From an uncultured Gammaproteobacteria bacterium (GTDB lineage Bacteria > Patescibacteriota > Microgenomatia > Daviesbacterales > UBA10151): a DNA stretch of 59,053 bases. Positions 50,111 to 59,053 of the stretch are shown piece after piece. The translations under genes were made by a program, and so were the position numbers. Below the pieces are notes generated by a model that worked only from the letters and a program-made list of their open reading frames with translations, had not been told where the DNA came from and did no database searches. Within the stretch, counting starts at the first letter, position 1. Every line of letters begins with the position of its first letter. Where the stretch lies: NCBI GenBank assembly GCA_964523905.1, contig CAZFYQ010000007.1, forward strand, positions 10,135 to 69,187. The letters run 5' to 3'.

Positions 50111-50995
50111 CTACTTTAACAATTCTGGAATCTCATCCGGAGTTTTGGCAAGTAATACTCCAGCATCTTTTAATGCATTAATTTTAGATTTATAACTACC
50201 TTTATCCCCGTATACAATCGCTCCTGCATGACCTAATTTAGTTCCCTGAGGTAAACTTTCAGCAAACAAACCGGAGATAAAAGCCACCACTTTTTTAGTG
50301 AATTTCCCACTCTTTATCATCTCGGCTGCTTCTTCTTCATAAGTGCCACCAATTTCTCCAAATAACACTACAGCTGTAGTCTGTAGGTCTTTTTCAAACT
50401 CTTCCAGCAGATCTGTAAAAGCCGAGCCAATTAAAATATCTCCTCCAATTCCAATTACAGTTGATTGACCAATGCCATTTTTAGTTAAAATCCAAGCAGT
50501 TTCTGAGGCCATTCCCCCGCTTTTGGAAATTACTCCAACATTTCCTTTGGTAAAAACTACCCGCGGGTCTTCTCCGCCAATTTGTCCCACTTTTCCTATC
50601 CCTGGTGAAATAATTCCCATGGAGGAAGGACCAACTATTTTGACACCTGCTTTTTTAGCCATTGCCAAAGCTTTAGCAGTATCAGCAATTGGCACATGCT
50701 CTGTAAACACATCAATTAAAGGAATCTTGGCTTTAATTGCCTCGGTCATGGCTCCTAATGCAGCAAAATTAGGCACGGAAATTAAAGAGGTATTTATTGC
50801 TGGATGATTTTCTAAGGCCTCAGCAATCGAGTTATAAACCGGAATCCCATGAACCTCTTGTCCACCTTTTCCTGGAGTCACTCCAGCAAGGACTTTAGTG
50901 CCATAATTTTTCATTTGCAATGCCACCTTGGAACCTTCTTTCCCAGTGATTCCTTGGACTAGCACTTTTGTTTTTTCGTTAACTAATATTGGCAT
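50111..50995 (-). CDS. CoA-ligase alpha-type subunit (SucD / citryl-CoA synthetase small subunit-like)
   Basis: MPILVNEKTKVLVQGITGKEG, GVTPGKGG and the phospho-His loop LGHAGAIV. Start set at ATG 50995; the track's GTG at 51007 lies inside a repeat arm. Confidence 0.85.
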   Translation of the reverse strand: MPILVNEKTKVLVQGITGKEGSKVALQMKNYGTKVLAGVTPGKGGQEVHGIPVYNSIAEALENHPAINTSLISVPNFAALGAMTEAIKAKIPLIDVFTEHVPIADTAKALAMAKKAGVKIVGPSSMGIISPGIGKVGQIGGEDPRVVFTKGNVGVISKSGGMASETAWILTKNGIGQSTVIGIGGDILIGSAFTDLLEEFEKDLQTTAVVLFGEIGGTYEEEAAEMIKSGKFTKKVVAFISGLFAESLPQGTKLGHAGAIVYGDKGSYKSKINALKDAGVLLAKTPDEIPELLK

Positions 50996-51002
50996 AATTG
51001 TT

Positions 51003-51063
51003 GTCACCCTGAACGCAGTGAAGGGTATAATTAAATTATATCCTTCGTTTCACTCAGGATGAC
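51003..51063. repeat. complete palindromic element between the two CoA-ligase-type subunit genes
   Basis: GTCACCCTGAACGCAGTGAAGGGTATAAT ... ATTATATCCTTCGTTTCACTCAGGATGAC. The right arm supplies the last codons (LSS) and the TGA stop codon of the upstream gene. Confidence 0.75.
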
Positions 51064-52205
51064 AATTTCCTTTCGTATGCTAAATCTACTATTGTCTTTG
51101 CAGTTGCTGTCATCGGAGTTTCGCGACCAAAAATGTGAAAATTAAAGCCTTCTTTTTGGCCAATTAGTTTAAGCTCTTCAAAAGCTTTTTGATCATTTGG
51201 TCCACCGCGTCTTATGACAATTGGATAAGTTGGTTTTGGTTTAACCTCTCTTAAACCCTCTACTACTCCCATTAATGTTTCATAAATATCAGTAAAATTA
51301 GCAGTCCCTCCCACTATCCACAGCCCTTTTAAACCAGGTTTAGACAATAATACTTGAGTAAGTTTTTTTAATTTCTCCCTAGGTGGATTACCAGAGTGTT
51401 CAGTATAATTAGCCGGCTTTCCACCCAAAGCAATTAAAGCATCCATGTTTACTACGCTTCCCCCGCCTCCGGCAGCTAGTACTGCAATATCTCCATCTAA
51501 ATCCCAATATACAGAACCGGCGGTTCCACGGTGATCTCCTTGATCAATTTTTCTGGCCTCAATTTCCCTTTCAGTTGAAGCTCTACCAAACAAATTTCTT
51601 TCCGGAAATTTCATATCCCTTCGAAAATCCGCATCATCATCCAAAATCACCTTGCTATCCAAAGCAATCACCAGCCCATCTTTGGCAATTACCAGAGGAT
51701 TAATTTCTGCCAACTCACAGTCATATTTTAAAAATACTTCCCAAAGTTTATTGGCAGTATCAATTAAATTTGCAGGTAAATCTTGTTCAAAGGGCCCTTT
51801 ATTTATATCAACCGGGTAAGTTTTAGCGCCTTTTCCTTCAGCTCCGGTACCCCCTTCACCAAAAGTCATCACCGGGCCGCGAGCCTCTGTTGAGTAGGAA
51901 AAAGATAAATAATATTCCTGATCTTCTTTAGCAATTTCTTCTTCCACCAAAATCTTTTCTACTTTTTCGCCGTTAACTTCTTTTGCAAATAATTCTTTCG
52001 CACTGTTGCCTAATGCCTGTTGCCTGTCCACTCTTATTATTCCTCCTGCTTCTTTTCTTTTGCCAGATAAAACCTGAGCTTTTAAAACGACAGGAACTGT
52101 CGTCCCCGACTTGATCGGGGACCCAGATGTAATAAGTTGACTTTCTGGAATATTAATCCCACAATTTTTAAATAGCTGTTTCCCTTCAAATTCATAAAGT
52201 AACAT
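51054..52205 (-). CDS. ATP-grasp beta-type subunit of the ATP-citrate lyase/citryl-CoA synthetase branch
   Basis: AAGGGGSVV...ANYTEHSGNP, IVGGTANFTD, IVIRRGGPN and HIFGRETPMTA match my memory of the ACLY N-terminal half better than SucC. The stop codon lies inside a repeat arm. Confidence 0.75.
   Translation of the reverse strand: MLLYEFEGKQLFKNCGINIPESQLITSGSPIKSGTTVPVVLKAQVLSGKRKEAGGIIRVDRQQALGNSAKELFAKEVNGEKVEKILVEEEIAKEDQEYYLSFSYSTEARGPVMTFGEGGTGAEGKGAKTYPVDINKGPFEQDLPANLIDTANKLWEVFLKYDCELAEINPLVIAKDGLVIALDSKVILDDDADFRRDMKFPERNLFGRASTEREIEARKIDQGDHRGTAGSVYWDLDGDIAVLAAGGGGSVVNMDALIALGGKPANYTEHSGNPPREKLKKLTQVLLSKPGLKGLWIVGGTANFTDIYETLMGVVEGLREVKPKPTYPIVIRRGGPNDQKAFEELKLIGQKEGFNFHIFGRETPMTATAKTIVDLAYERKLSS
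52003..52030. repeat. heptamer tract (CTGTTGC CTAATGC CTGTTGC CTGTCCA) in the ACL-like beta subunit gene
   Basis: Translated as DRQQALGNS. Confidence 0.85.
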
Positions 52206-53381: not shown

Positions 53382-53399
53382 TATAGCATATATGCTATA
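53382..53399. promoter_or_regulatory. 18-bp perfect palindrome overlapping a TGcTATAAT box between toxin and antitoxin genes
   Basis: TATAGCATA|TATGCTATA spans the toxin stop codon. On the minus strand it contains an extended -10 (TGCTATAAT) about 38 nt upstream of the antitoxin ATG. Confidence 0.5.
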
Positions 53400-53739
53400 T
53401 TATCTCTCTCATTCTGTCAACTGCCAGTTTTAATTCCCTACTTGGAGTTTTTTGAGTTTTCTTTTTAAATGCATGAAGCAAATAGTATTCGTTATTTTTA
53501 ATAGTATAGAAAATTCTAATAGAAACACTCCCTGAGATTCTTAGCTCATATAATTTATCCTGCAATTTTTTGATTAATGGAGGTTGTAAAAAAGGCCCAC
53601 CCTGCTTCAGAAGAGTTACTGCAGTAAGAATTTTAGCGTAGGTTTTTTCATCTTGAGCTTTAATAAACTCCTCGACTGGTAATTCACCGCGGGTAGTTTG
53701 AAAAGATTTAACTGTCCAGGTTCTTACTGGAGTATCCAT
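53395..53739 (-). CDS. RelE/ParE-superfamily toxin (phage Gp49/HigB-like)
   Basis: 114 aa with LYELRI...IRIFY...LLHAFKKK typical of Gp49-like toxins. Toxin-first gene order. Confidence 0.7.
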   Translation of the reverse strand: MDTPVRTWTVKSFQTTRGELPVEEFIKAQDEKTYAKILTAVTLLKQGGPFLQPPLIKKLQDKLYELRISGSVSIRIFYTIKNNEYYLLHAFKKKTQKTPSRELKLAVDRMREII

Positions 53740-55051: not shown

Positions 55052-55129
55052 TGGTACCAGGGGTGGGGATCGAACCCACGAACCTCTTCGTTATGATTGA
55101 AGCGCTCTAACCAACTGAGCTACCCTGGC
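55052..55129 (-). tRNA. tRNA-Met (anticodon CAT), probably elongator; CCA encoded
   Basis: Manual cloverleaf: acceptor GCCAGGG/CCCTGGT (G1-U72 wobble), D arm GCTC/GAGC, anticodon loop ATCATAA, T arm GTGGG-TTCGATC-CCCAC, then ACCA. Oddities are an A31xC39 mismatch and a 6-nt variable loop. A lysidine-type tRNA-Ile2 cannot be excluded. Confidence 0.85.
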
Positions 55130-55285: not shown

Positions 55286-56653
55286 TTAAACAAAAAGGGA
55301 ATAAATAGTGGCTAGACCAGTGATTACCATAGCTAAAGTTATTAGCCAACCAAAGAAAGCAGAGATCGGCCCATTAGCCTTATCCCCCATTACTTTTTTG
55401 TTACTACTTAAAAGCACAATTAGCACCAAAATCACCGGCGCAATTAAGCCATTACCAATAGCAGTATAGATTAACACTTTAACTACATCCAAATGCAGAA
55501 AATTAATTCCTAAACCAAATAATGTGGAGATAATAATCACTCCATAAAAAGCATTGGCCTCTTTTAGTTTTCTATATAGACCATACTTCCAACCAAAGCT
55601 TTCTGAAAGAGCATATGAAGCTGATCCGGCTAACACTGGAATTGCTAACAGCCCGGTGCCAATAATTCCGGCAGTAAATAAAAGATAAGTAAAGTCTCCG
55701 GCAATTGGACGCAAAGCCTCGGCAGCATCAGCAGCAGTAGTAATGGTTGTAATACCATGGCTAAATAAAGTGGCGGCACAGGCCGCAATAATAAAAAACA
55801 TCACCAAATTAGACAAAAACATTCCAGACCAAACATCCAGTCGCATGTTTTTGATAGCCTCATCATCAGTACCTTTTCGAAGAGCCAAAGTTAATTTGCC
55901 TTGCAAAATCTCCTCCTCTACTTCCTGGGAAGTCTGCCAGAAAAATAAATATGGTGAAATGGTAGTACCTAACACAGCAGTAACCAGAAAAATCTGGTCT
56001 TTGGAAAAACTAATTGCCGGAATAAAAGTACCCTTAATTAAATCATTAACATTCAAATGAGTGCTTAAAGCAGAAAAAACATAGGTCAGCAAAATTAATG
56101 CCAGCCATTTTAAATATTTGGCATATTTATCATAAGTAGTAAAAATCTGCAAGGCCAAAGAAAAAACCGTAAAGCCTAAGATCAAAGTATTAAAGCTAAC
56201 CTGCGGTGCCAAAAGCTGAGCTGCCTTAGCCATTGCTCCCAGGTCAGCTCCAATGTTTAAAGAATTAACCCCAAACAGTAAAAAGGTACAAAGATATAAC
56301 ACCCATTTGGGATAAAACTTTCTAATATTTGCTGCCAGGCCCCGACCAGTTACCAGACCAATCCGGGCACACATTTCCTGTACTACAGCCATTAAAGGAA
56401 AGGTAAACGGCGCCAGCCAGAGTAACTTAAAACCATACTGGGCCCCGGCCTGAGAATAAGTGGCAATTCCAGATGGATCATCATCTGCTGCACCGGTAGT
56501 TAAACCAGGCCCCAGAGTTTTCCAGTAATCCTTGGCTTTTATGATATCTTTTTGATAGCGGATGCGATTAACCAGTCTTTCTGAAGTATCAATGGTATTA
56601 CCTAAAGCCCTGGCCGGAGCCTCTGCAACGCTCTTAAAAAACTTTTTGGTCAT
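55286..56653 (-). CDS. NRAMP-family divalent metal (Mn/Fe) transporter
   Basis: 455 aa with about 11 TM helices and an N-terminal DDDPSGIATYSQAGAQYGF motif region. Confidence 0.8.
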   Translation of the reverse strand: MTKKFFKSVAEAPARALGNTIDTSERLVNRIRYQKDIIKAKDYWKTLGPGLTTGAADDDPSGIATYSQAGAQYGFKLLWLAPFTFPLMAVVQEMCARIGLVTGRGLAANIRKFYPKWVLYLCTFLLFGVNSLNIGADLGAMAKAAQLLAPQVSFNTLILGFTVFSLALQIFTTYDKYAKYLKWLALILLTYVFSALSTHLNVNDLIKGTFIPAISFSKDQIFLVTAVLGTTISPYLFFWQTSQEVEEEILQGKLTLALRKGTDDEAIKNMRLDVWSGMFLSNLVMFFIIAACAATLFSHGITTITTAADAAEALRPIAGDFTYLLFTAGIIGTGLLAIPVLAGSASYALSESFGWKYGLYRKLKEANAFYGVIIISTLFGLGINFLHLDVVKVLIYTAIGNGLIAPVILVLIVLLSSNKKVMGDKANGPISAFFGWLITLAMVITGLATIYSLFV

Positions 56654-56708
56654 GACTTTAAGAGTAAACTTTGGAACCTAACTTAGTCAAGTCAGAAAGT
56701 GCATTTAA

Positions 56709-56737
56709 TTGACATGCTCTCCCCTGCGAGCTACAAT
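56709..56737 (+). promoter_or_regulatory. consensus sigma70-type promoter of the intron-containing tRNA
   Basis: TTGACA (56709-56714), 17-nt spacer, TACAAT (56732-56737). tRNA nucleotide C1 lies 7 nt downstream, so the transcript may start at or next to the mature 5' end. Confidence 0.6.
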
Positions 56738-56743
56738 ATCGAA

Positions 56744-56999
56744 CGCGGGGAAGTGTAACGGCTGCACACAAGGCTCAAAATGGGCCCGTAGATAGGTAAC
56801 TATTTGCGAGAACCTGGCTATATCGGTGAAACCCTTTTAGGGCAATACCGAGGGAAGTCCTTCGATTAACACTCAGGACCCCGTAGAGACTACACGCCGG
56901 GGGTCCGATATTTCGGATCGTGATATAGTCCAACCCTTGTAGTAATACAAGTTCAAGTGCATAATCTTGAGGCAGTAGGTTCGACTCCTACCCCCGCAA
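56744..56999 (+). tRNA. initiator-type tRNA-Met (anticodon CAT) interrupted by a group I intron; CCA not encoded
   Basis: The exons 56744-56775 and 56960-56999 join to a canonical 72-nt cloverleaf. The acceptor CGCGGGG/CCCCGCA plus A73 is identical to E. coli tRNA-fMet, including the C1xA72 mismatch. Other elements: D arm GTGT/GCAC, anticodon arm CAAGG-CTCATAA-TCTTG, T arm GTAGG-TTCGACT-CCTAC. Confidence 0.85.
56776..56959 (+). ncRNA. group I intron (IC3-like), 184 nt, between U33 and C34 of the tRNA
   Basis: P1 GGCU/GGCC with a U-G wobble at the splice site; P2 56788-56807 (GUAA loop); P3 CCUGGC/GCCGGG; P4 UCGG/CCGA flanking GAAACCC..AGGGCAAU; P6 with an AA bulge; P7 G(A)GACUA/UAGUCC; P8 56902-56919; P9 CUUGUA-GUAA-UACAAG; terminal G at 56959. 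Confidence 0.8.
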
Positions 57000-57000
57000 C

Positions 57001-57252
57001 ATGTGGTTTGTGTATATTCTTCTTTGCAAAGACTCCAGTTTCTACACCGGAATGACTAATGACCTTGATAAACGCTTTGCCGAACATAAAAAGGGCACTG
57101 GGGGACGCTATACCCGCTCCCATCCACCGATCAAGATCGCCTATTCTGAGAGTTTTCCTACCAAATCCCAGGCTCTTAAAAGAGAATCTGAAATTAAATC
57201 CTGGCCCAGACAAAAGAAAATTAAGACTTTTAATTTAACAAAACAGTGGTAA
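57001..57252 (+). CDS. GIY-YIG nuclease-superfamily small protein (UPF0213/YhbQ-like)
   Basis: 83 aa with the FVYILLC..FYTGMTNDL..R..EH signature. The ATG starts 2 nt after the tRNA discriminator base. Confidence 0.8.
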   Translation: MWFVYILLCKDSSFYTGMTNDLDKRFAEHKKGTGGRYTRSHPPIKIAYSESFPTKSQALKRESEIKSWPRQKKIKTFNLTKQW

Positions 57253-57732: not shown

Positions 57733-57761
57733 TTGACAAAAGAGTCCTATAAGTTTACAAT
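57733..57761 (+). promoter_or_regulatory. consensus promoter of the recombinase gene (leaderless spacing)
   Basis: TTGACA-17-TACAAT, with the ATG at 57769 following a 7-nt gap. Confidence 0.55.
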
Positions 57762-57768
57762 AGATGTT

Positions 57769-58635
57769 ATGAGTACTTTGAGAGATGCACATAATCAATT
57801 TGTAGAATACCTTAAGGGTAAATCACGCTCCTCTGCTACTATCTTAGCCTATGGCAAAGATATTGATCAACTAGTCAGCTTCCTGGAAGCTTTGGGTAAA
57901 ACTGAGGTTTCCACTGTGGAAACCCCTGATTTACAGACTTTTATGGATGATTTAGCCAAAAAAGCCTACACTGCCAAGTCAATTTCCAGAAAAACCAATT
58001 CTACCAAAACTTTCTTTAAATTCTTGAAGGCTGAAAGCCTTCTAACAGGTGATCCTGCTACCGGATTGTCCCACCCTAAATTTGAGAATAAACCTCCACG
58101 AATTTTAACTAAACTGGAATACCGGGCTTTAAGAGATGCTGCTAAATCTGATGTTCGAATGATTGCCGTAATTGAACTTTTGCTACAAACCGGAGTTAGA
58201 ATTGGTGAGCTGGCTAAGATTAGAATTGAAGATGTTAATACTACTGACACCACTGTTCATGTGCCTCCGTTTGAAGATACCAGAGAAAGAACTATTCCGT
58301 TAAATAAACCAGCTGCAGAAACTATTGCTAAATATTTAGAAATCAGACCAGCCTCCCCTTCTCATAGCCTGTTTATTACCAAAACCGGCCGACCGTTACT
58401 AATTAGGAATATCCGTACTGCCATTGATAGATACTTTAGATTAGCCGGTATTAAAGAGGCCAAGGTCAATGATTTGCGTCATACCTGGGTAGCTTATCAG
58501 CTACAATCAGGAGTTCCGATGACTGTAGTTTCCAAACTAGCCGGCCATAAAAGACTTTCCACTACTGAAAGATATCTCCAATTCATCCAAGGAGCCAACA
58601 ACGGTTCCGCTAAAGTTAAGCTCGAAGAACTTTAA
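57769..58635 (+). CDS. tyrosine recombinase (XerC/XerD-like integrase)
   Basis: C-terminal catalytic residues in LRHTWVAYQL and GHKRLSTTERY. ATG 57769 is preferred over the track's TTG 57733, because 57733-57738 reads as a -35 box. Confidence 0.85.
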   Translation: MSTLRDAHNQFVEYLKGKSRSSATILAYGKDIDQLVSFLEALGKTEVSTVETPDLQTFMDDLAKKAYTAKSISRKTNSTKTFFKFLKAESLLTGDPATGLSHPKFENKPPRILTKLEYRALRDAAKSDVRMIAVIELLLQTGVRIGELAKIRIEDVNTTDTTVHVPPFEDTRERTIPLNKPAAETIAKYLEIRPASPSHSLFITKTGRPLLIRNIRTAIDRYFRLAGIKEAKVNDLRHTWVAYQLQSGVPMTVVSKLAGHKRLSTTERYLQFIQGANNGSAKVKLEEL

Positions 58636-58961: not shown

Positions 58962-58981
58962 AAGTTGGCACGGAGTTAAAG

Positions 58982-59053
58982 TAGGCCCGGAAGGAGTTGA
59001 ACCCTCGTCACGACTGTATAAGAATCGGGTATTAACCGTTATACGACGGGCCT
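58982..59053 (-). tRNA. tRNA-Ile (anticodon TAT); CCA not encoded; 5' end coincides with the window end
   Basis: Manual cloverleaf: AGGCCCG/CGGGCCT acceptor, GTAT/ATAC D stem, CGATT-CTTATAC-AGTCG anticodon arm, 4-nt variable loop, GAGGG-TTCAACT-CCTTC T arm, discriminator A. Confidence 0.8.

Follow-up and report, generated by a model that had tools for sequence, protein, structure and literature searches.

A tRNA(CAU) gene with a predicted 184-nt group I intron in a Microgenomates-type bacterium, probably encoding a divergent initiator tRNA

A 59,053-nt stretch of contig CAZFYQ010000007.1 (assembly GCA_964523905.1), referred to below as the window, contains a tRNA(CAU) gene that is split in its anticodon loop by a 184-nt group I intron lacking an open reading frame (ORF). 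We regard it as highly likely that the gene belongs to a Microgenomates-type bacterium, that it is interrupted by this ORF-less intron, and that its product is most probably a divergent initiator tRNA(fMet). The narrower claim, that a real group I intron is spliced out of a functional tRNA gene, is nearly certain; the intron is a conserved one at the classical tRNA-fMet site and is very probably spliced. An earlier reading of the letters of this DNA (the original prediction) had proposed such an arrangement, and its structural part was borne out. Features lie on the forward strand unless stated otherwise.

Structure and conservation of the split gene

The 5′ exon (56744–56775, 32 nt, CGCGGGGAAGTGTAACGGCTGCACACAAGGCT) contains the acceptor 5′ strand CGCGGGG, A8 and A9, the D arm, the 5′ strand of the anticodon stem, C32, and U33. 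The 3′ exon (56960–56999, 40 nt, CATAATCTTGAGGCAGTAGGTTCGACTCCTACCCCCGCAA) contains the CAU anticodon, A37 and A38, the UCUUG strand of the anticodon stem, the variable loop, the T arm, CCCCGCA, and A73; CCA is not encoded. Joining the two manually gave the 72-nt cloverleaf that had been predicted, base for base, which ARAGORN called tRNA-Met(CAT) and whose anticodon loop is CU-CAU-AA. ARAGORN found no split gene at the locus, either in its default run or in intron mode (-i, 56600–57100).

The intervening 184 nt (56776–56959, between U33 and C34), which start with CAAAAUGGGCC and finish with AAGUG, were identified as a group I intron by the Rfam Intron_gpI model (RF00028) and by covariation within a family of homologues. 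The model matched positions 56766–56952 (forward strand) with 68.8 bits (gathering score, 50; E = 2.2e-15; model positions 1–253), and this was the sole group I match within the window. A chance match to the group I model was rejected on the basis of this E value (2e-15) and the covariation. The minimum free energy fold of the pre-tRNA recovered P1, P2, P3, P4, P5, P6/P6a, P8, and P9 together with the acceptor, D, and T stems (z = -4.74), and none of 200 shuffled sequences folded equally well.

In the Rfam alignment, P1 (56772–56776 with 56782–56786) is formed by the exon bases GGCU and C56776 pairing with the internal guide G-GGCC. The 5′ splice site is marked by the U56775·G56783 wobble within GGCU/GGCC, as had been proposed. 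Immediately 5′ of this strand, the guide AUG (56780–56782) can pair with CAU (56960–56962), the first three bases of the 3′ exon, to form P10. P2 (56787–56808) is a 9-bp helix closed by the GUAA tetraloop L2 (56796–56799), and P3 pairs CCUGGC (56813–56818) with GCCGGG (56896–56901), a helix supported by covariation. The P4–P5 domain (56823–56851) consists of P4 (UCGGUG/UACCGA, 56823–56828 with 56846–56851) and P5 (CCCU/AGGG, 56832–56842, 4 bp with a 3-nt loop), joined by J4/5 AAA and J5/4 CAA. It is followed by P6/P6a (56852–56882), where the fold gives P6 as GGG/CCC with an AA bulge and P6a as GUCC/GGAC with a 15-nt loop.

The presumed guanosine-binding helix begins in GUAGAGACUA (56883–56892), which holds J6/7 and the 5′ strand of P7. 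P7 pairs GACUA (56888–56892) with UAGUC (56926–56930) and gains the extra pair G56886-C56931 if A56887 is bulged; we take its guanosine-binding role by analogy with solved group I introns. P8 (56903–56918, from the fold) has 6 bp (GUCCGA/UCGGAU) and the loop UAUU. J8/7 and the 3′ strand of P7 lie in CGUGAUAUAGUCC (56919–56931, from the Rfam alignment), including the motif GAUAUAGUCC at 56922–56931, and P9 (56936–56951) has 6 bp and the GUAA tetraloop L9 (56942–56945). The last intron base, G56959 (omega G), sets the 3′ splice site, and a G was also found there in 14 of 14 family loci from a genome scan with a pattern that left this base free. Anatomy, fold, and alignment thus agree with the P2–P9 layout, bulged A in P7, and GUAA loops on P2 and P9 that the original prediction had drawn, and with its terminal G.

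P1–P9 and their junctions account for all 184 nt; P2 is present, and there is no P2.1, P5abc, P7.1/7.2, or P9.1. The listing of ORFs of at least 80 aa held none inside 56776–56959, in keeping with the intron having been described as ORF-less, and an 86-aa ORF on the minus strand (56953–57213) overlaps just its last 7 bases. An intron-encoded endonuclease was rejected for the window copy, as no ORF of at least 80 aa lies within the intron.

The family was collected with the pattern GTAGAGACTAN{18,48}GATATAGTCC in one genome per species (at least 120 loci) and with the same pattern plus ...GCATAA, a terminal G being required, in metagenomes (at least 120 loci). Both intron boundaries were mapped from conserved exon sequence at no fewer than 114 homologous loci, a sample biased by the search pattern. 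For the covariation analysis, 103 distinct sequences were aligned with MAFFT without structural information (alignment A1). In addition, every U...G combination around 120 genome loci was spliced by brute force and passed through ARAGORN (441,702 candidates); several alternative 3′ sites per locus were obtained, and the result was kept only for hand-resolved loci (L071, L056, L059, and others).

The genome-scan matches listed came mostly from the Candidate Phyla Radiation (CPR)/Patescibacteria, and many were tRNA or 23S rRNA genes with group I introns. Among them, 14 loci had a CAU tRNA with an intron after GGCU. Twelve share the unusual tRNA of the window and come from Daviesbacteria, Levybacteria, Roizmanbacteria, Gottesmanbacteria, and several generically labelled metagenome-assembled genomes (MAGs); the other two, from Omnitrophota (L016) and Planctomycetales (L018), are canonical initiator tRNAs. 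The closest complete relative among these matches was found in a Daviesbacteria MAG (L053, 76% identity), and the window falls in a Daviesbacteria-like subclade marked by A8 A9 and by the canonical T loop UUCGACU. Judged by its named relatives, the locus is assigned to a Microgenomates-type (CPR/Patescibacteria) bacterium, in line with the CPR-type genome that had been proposed.

Across alignment A1, 89.2% of the cells in the proposed helices were paired, compared with 76.9% in shuffles (0 of 500 reached the observed value) and 36–47% when the partners were slid by 1–3 columns. Changes on both sides were seen in 35 of the 56 pairs: in all nine pairs of P2, five of six in P3 (99.8% of cells paired; CCUGGC/GCCGGG, CUUAGC/GCUAAG, and UUUGGC/GCCAAA, among others), two of three in P5, six of seven in P6, all five aligned pairs of P8, and five of six in P9 (96% of cells paired). 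Only 70% of the cells were paired in P6, a variable region that aligns poorly, and P4 was near-invariant, with four fixed pairs and two outer pairs that vary slightly. P1 was 99% paired, with U·G at the splice site in 103 of 103 sequences, and P10 had 90% of its cells paired, the guide being AUG, UUG, or GUG directly 5′ of GGGCY. Thus, the homologous loci do contain compensatory changes, as expected of a genuine group I intron. Some of the conservation has to be discounted, however: P7 was invariant in 103 of 103 sequences, but its bases belonged to the search pattern, and since P7, J8/7 (GAUAUAGUCC), omega G, and CAUAA were all fixed by the patterns, their invariance carries no weight.

GNRA loops were found in 97 of 103 sequences for L2 and in 101 of 103 for L9, and conservation was also seen for one C-G pair in P8 and for the inner two in P5. 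This combination fits a docking of L9 on P5 and of L2 on P8, as in the Azoarcus intron.

The joined exons of the 103 homologues were 96.9% paired, with 100% in the D, anticodon, and T stems, and compensatory changes were found at 27-43, at 28-42, and all along the T stem. This pattern argues that selection acts on the spliced tRNA product, and it is the strongest indirect evidence for accurate removal of the intron. It also bears on the view that the intron is a decayed relic without splicing of its own, lying in a pseudogene or depending wholly on proteins for its removal. Such a relic might be very small, with P5 at the family minimum and no ORF, and the failure of the Rfam model to report the close relatives L201 and L134 even at E ≤ 0.001 would suit it. 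However, no core helix or junction is damaged, and compensatory changes were seen across more than 100 loci. Together with purifying selection on the tRNA exons and a strong promoter ahead of the gene, this forms a pattern that a pseudogene would not hold. We consider a relic very improbable, although a protein cofactor may be needed for splicing, and a pseudogene was rejected because covariation is found in intron and exons alike.

By homology with characterised group I introns, we infer the following course of splicing, including its protein independence and tertiary contacts. Transcription of the split gene would start at its own promoter and give a transcript with a very short leader or none. 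The intron would then fold into P1–P10, with the GUAA loops L2 and L9 docking on the CC:GG helices of P8 and P5, and an external guanosine bound in P7 would attack the phosphate after U33, at the U·G wobble of P1. G56959 would next occupy the same site while P10 (CAU with AUG) aligns the 3′ exon, and ligation of the exons would yield the 72-nt tRNA. Nothing in the present results changes the known working of such introns.

Identity of the host tRNA

The interrupted tRNA is probably an initiator, to judge from its acceptor stem and from the tRNA genes around it. The stem CGCGGGG/CCCCGCA carries the mismatch C1×A72 and is followed by A73; the same acceptor stem and discriminator base are those of Escherichia coli tRNA-fMet. 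The initiator marks found in the window are CAU, C1×A72, A73, G2-C71, and C3-G70. In the family (n = 103), positions 1 and 72 are C·A in 63 sequences, U-A in 37, C·U in 2, A·A in 1, and G-C in none, while A73 and C3-G70 occur in all 103 and G2-C71 in 100.

Two further tRNA genes of the window lie on the reverse strand: an uninterrupted elongator-type tRNA-Met(CAU) at 55052–55129, with G1 paired to position 72, and a tRNA-Ile(UAU) at 58981–59053. The same company was found across the family, where 845 kb of flanking sequence (at least 114 loci) held 71 uninterrupted elongator-type tRNA-Met(CAU) genes, 37 tRNA-Ile(UAU) genes, and hardly any other tRNAs. With these two tRNAs nearby, AUA and the elongator AUG are already served, and since AUA would be read by the UAU tRNA, the simplest reading of the two CAU tRNAs is one initiator and one elongator Met. 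We also note that tRNA-Ile(UAU) is unusual in bacteria and suggests lysidine-free decoding of AUA in the lineage of the window.

Graded intermediates connect the family tRNA to canonical initiators. The anticodon stem is canonical GGG/CCC in L169 and L194, AGG/CCU together with A11-U24 in L131 and L124, and AGG/UCU in the Microgenomates type, and all four of these named loci bear an intron at the insertion site of the window.

Three observations weigh against the initiator assignment, the first two of which had been raised as caveats in the original prediction and were both confirmed. The three G-C pairs of initiators (29-41, 30-40, and 31-39) are missing: the anticodon stem of the window is CAAGG/UCUUG, with A29-U41, G30-C40, and G31·U39, and these A-U, G-C, and G·U pairs recur in 99–101 of the 103 sequences. 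Pair 11-24 of the window tRNA is an elongator-like U-A, as it is in 99 of 103 sequences, and A11-U24 is found in four canonical-like members only. Lastly, tFind/tRNAscan-SE labelled a family member, Gba28, as Ile2 (Williams 2020, bioRxiv 10.1101/2020.01.27.920355). The initiator identity proposed earlier thus holds for the acceptor stem and for a 1-72 pair that is never G-C, whereas two hallmarks are absent and the published family label differs.

The label corresponds to an alternative in which the intron is as described and the host is tRNA-Ile2, whose CAU is modified to lysidine and reads AUA. Besides the seed name Gba28.Ile2.2Ug, U11-A24 and the absence of the three G-C pairs speak for it. 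U39/C40 (AAUCU) also resembles the anticodon arm of E. coli tRNA-Ile2. However, the AUA codon already has its tRNA-Ile(UAU) in the window and beside 37 family loci, although an Ile2 host would be expected to occur without one. In bacteria where a UAU tRNA reads AUA, tilS and tRNA-Ile2 are dispensable or absent (PMC3575796). Moreover, an initiator acceptor stem with a mismatch or a weak U-A at 1-72 in 103 of 103 sequences would be unexpected for an elongator that binds EF-Tu, and we find Ile2 an improbable host.

Rather unlikely, too, is a host that is an elongator tRNA-Met or a single tRNA-Met serving both initiation and elongation. CAU, A73, the elongator-like U11-A24, and the U1-A72 pair seen in 36% of the family are compatible with it, but C1×A72 is found in 61%, and a separate elongator-type tRNA-Met(CAU) is present both at 55052–55129 and beside 71 family loci.

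Returning to the initiator assignment, we tentatively propose a further step: throughout the Microgenomates superphylum (CPR), the sole initiator tRNA might be intron-split, which would make initiation dependent on a ribozyme of ~180–200 nt, and the mature initiator might lack the three G-C pairs, A11-U24, and mostly the canonical T loop. If this were true, it would imply that IF3 and the 30S P site discriminate differently. A whole CPR superphylum would then initiate without the three G-C pairs, so that the role of this signature could be tested in nature. A literature search on CPR initiator tRNA returned nothing relevant. For annotation, the consequence is practical: a split gene of this kind is missed by the tRNA finder ARAGORN, and genomes of the lineage will therefore seem to lack an initiator tRNA without intron-aware mapping.

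The loops of the family tRNAs are themselves unusual. Most T loops are non-canonical (CGCAACU in 28, CGCGACU in 12, and UGCGAUU in 10, where UUCRANY is expected), and D loops of merely 5–7 nt often lack GG (ACAGU, AGAGUU). Judged by eye, GG D loops appear paired with UUC T loops and AG D loops with CGC/UGC T loops. The loops of the window tRNA, AACGGCU (56757–56763) and UUCGACU (56980–56986), are more canonical, but A8 replaces U8.

Intron size, promoter, and neighbouring genes

Intron lengths at the mapped loci ranged from 180 to 292 nt, with a median of ~198 nt, plus four ORF-bearing copies of 624–656 nt. Seven were shorter than that of the window: L201 (180 nt), L145 and L179 (181 nt), L134 and L240 (182 nt), and L158 and L180 (183 nt). 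Two more were also 184 nt. Outside the family, another CPR genome (Wildermuthbacteria, L071) has a 180-nt intron in its tRNA-Asn(GUU) gene, inserted between U35 and U36 and showing a clean GCUGU/GCAGC P1. The window intron is small mainly because its P5 spans 11 nt, the family minimum, where the median is 19. Hence, 184 nt is the typical low end of a continuous distribution in which ~180–200 nt is a normal size, and it is not a record; still shorter introns probably exist, since the sample was biased by the search pattern.

The usual benchmark for a minimal group I intron is the 205-nt Azoarcus intron (a 208-nt seed minus 3 exon bases). The suggestion that the window intron is possibly among the smallest natural ones is therefore literally fair in that it lies below this benchmark, but it has to be read beside seven relatives of 180–183 nt, two of equal length, and the 180-nt L071. 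A literature search on the smallest group I intron gave nothing usable; one study states that most fungal nuclear introns exceed 200 nt and that degenerate elements of 56–81 nt exist (PMC3160393). The family is of use to RNA biochemistry as a source of natural, complete group I ribozymes of 180–190 nt, ~10% below the Azoarcus model, in more than 100 natural variants.

L145, L240, and L179 exceeded the Rfam gathering score, and the same Intron_gpI model reported none of L201, L134, and L071 even at E ≤ 0.001. These three nevertheless align with Rfam-positive relatives, and the energy fold of L201 recovers P1–P6 and P8. Group I introns of CPR tRNA genes are thus under-detected by the standard Rfam model.

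Upstream of the gene lies a sigma-70-type promoter, TTGACA-17-TACAAT (56709–56737, 11 of 12 consensus matches), which ends 6 nt before tRNA position 1 and is the promoter from which transcription had been predicted to start at that position. Of 106 family loci, 81 had a comparable promoter within 70 nt upstream. Six loci, the window included, have 6 nt between the -10 box and tRNA position 1, and 35 have 9–10 nt. The spacing in the window predicts a 5′ leader that is absent or 1–2 nt long, and primary transcripts of the family would have leaders of 0–4 nt, leaving little or nothing for RNase P to remove.

Two nucleotides past the discriminator base, a GIY-YIG-only ORF of 83 aa begins (57001–57252, Pfam E = 2.4e-20), with no promoter between it and the tRNA. 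Homologous small GIY-YIG ORFs were found within 300 nt downstream, on the same strand, at 18 of 103 family loci, with only about six other copies in the 845 kb. The protein could be a free-standing partner nuclease acting in intron maintenance or mobility, or the product of a selfish gene targeting tRNA flanks. The name homing endonuclease was rejected for it, as the NCBIfam model 'group I intron endonuclease' scored 19.5 bits against a cutoff of 56.

Other genes of the window are unconnected to the intron. They include two genes with ATP-citrate-lyase/succinyl-CoA-ligase-type domains (50111–52205, reverse strand), a Gp49/HigB-like toxin gene (53395–53739, reverse strand), and a gene for a XerC/D-type tyrosine recombinase (57733–58635), which overlaps a second consensus promoter match (57733–57761).

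Relation to known group I introns

The intron is not new in kind, contrary to the novelty implied by the original prediction: it occupies the classical tRNA-fMet site, and its family is already in a published seed alignment. Williams 2020 (bioRxiv 10.1101/2020.01.27.920355) lists as classical the types Leu.3Ug, Arg.5Ug, fMet.2Ug, and Ile2.5Ug, all of subgroup IC3, describes 17 further types as new, and gives 0.49 interrupted genes per genome for metagenomic 'unnamed phyla'. Site 2 of that numbering comes after loop base two (U33|C34), which places the window intron at the classical fMet.2Ug site.

The seed Gba28.Ile2.2Ug belongs to the family of the window, with 83% identity over aligned positions, compared with 67% for Azoarcus. 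Both have the same type of tRNA body, the insertion site GGCU|CA...G|CAUAAUCU, a GUAA loop on P9, and a shared core (GGCUAUAUCGGU, CAAUACCGAGG, CCGUAGAGACUAYACGCC, and GAUAUAGUCC). They differ in length (193 nt for Gba28, 184 nt for the window) and in the name of the host, Ile2 in the seed and initiator in our reading. Three loci of our collection (L171, L127, and L196) match the splice-site-proximal ends of Gba28, and two of the three are also 193 nt long.

The cyanobacterial tRNA-fMet intron (fMet.2Ug, IC3) resembles that of the window in its position at U33|C34, its CAU tRNA, and the CGCGGGG acceptor stem, and our scans also found canonical initiators with an intron at the fMet site (L016, L018, L169, and L194). 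However, the classical intron has J3/4 AAAYU, P6 GCC..GGU, and a longer 3′ domain with P9.0 and two hairpins, and measures 203–250 nt when ORF-less, whereas that of the window combines J3/4 UAUA and P6 GGG..CCC with just one P9 hairpin, in a tRNA without GGG/CCC. Some cyanobacterial copies also carry the PD-(D/E)XK homing endonuclease I-SspI, in contrast to the ORF-less copy of the window. Within our collection, a PD-(D/E)XK ORF (PF11645, I-SspI-like, E = 2.5e-43) was seen in the P1 loop of the introns of L122, L206, and L209, whose hosts are near-canonical initiator tRNAs with a GGAGCAGCC D arm and the anticodon stem CAAGG/CCUUG; a LAGLIDADG ORF was seen in P6 of the intron of L168, in a Microgenomates-type tRNA.

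In alignment A1, the intron cores at this site fall into two lineages. The classical lineage (J3/4 AAAY, GAGCCAAG...GGUGUAGAGACUA, long 3′ domain) occupies canonical or near-canonical initiators. The Microgenomates lineage has J3/4 UAUA/UGUA, GAGGGAA...CCGUAGAGACUA, and a single P9, a core common to CPR introns in 23S rRNA, tmRNA, and other tRNAs. The classical IC3 signature (J3/4 AAAUU, P6 GCC..GGU, P9.0 plus two hairpins) was absent from the window and from 99 of 103 sequences. By sequence signature, then, the intron is not filed as IC3: its architecture is IC3-like, but it belongs to a separate CPR lineage. The Rfam Intron_gpI model makes no subgroup classification.

Other CPR introns, in tRNA-Asp, -Asn, -Tyr, and 23S rRNA, share AUAUCGGUGAA, AAUACCGNGG, CCGUAGAGACUA, and GAUAUAGUCC with the window, as do tmRNA seeds. 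Their host genes differ, those in Asp, Asn, and Tyr sit at position 35/36, and their sizes run from 180 to 250 nt. Introns of 180–205 nt at 35/36 were observed in Asn GUU, Tyr GUA, and Asp GUC (L071, L056, L059, L050, L096, L114, L007, and others). Group I introns in CPR tRNA genes have been remarked upon before (Lui et al. 2021).

The split tRNA(CAU) arrangement is therefore an ordinary member of a catalogued family, present in more than 100 related uncultured bacteria. Its residual interest lies in a superphylum initiator that is perhaps obligatorily split and atypical, in the recurrent downstream GIY-YIG gene, and in natural ribozymes of 180–190 nt.

Finally, the Azoarcus pre-tRNA-Ile(CAU) intron (Ile2.5Ug, IC3) has the GUAGAGACUA core of the window intron, and the two share a minimal P1–P10 structure with GNRA loops on P2 and P9 and no peripheral domains. 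The Azoarcus intron follows U36 and is 205 nt long, whereas that of the window follows U33 and is 184 nt long. Self-splicing has been demonstrated experimentally for Azoarcus and is predicted for the window intron. The tertiary contacts would also differ: in Azoarcus, GAAA loops meet 11-nt receptors, and in the ribozymes of the window family, GUAA loops facing CC:GG helices would dock directly on those helices in place of such receptors.

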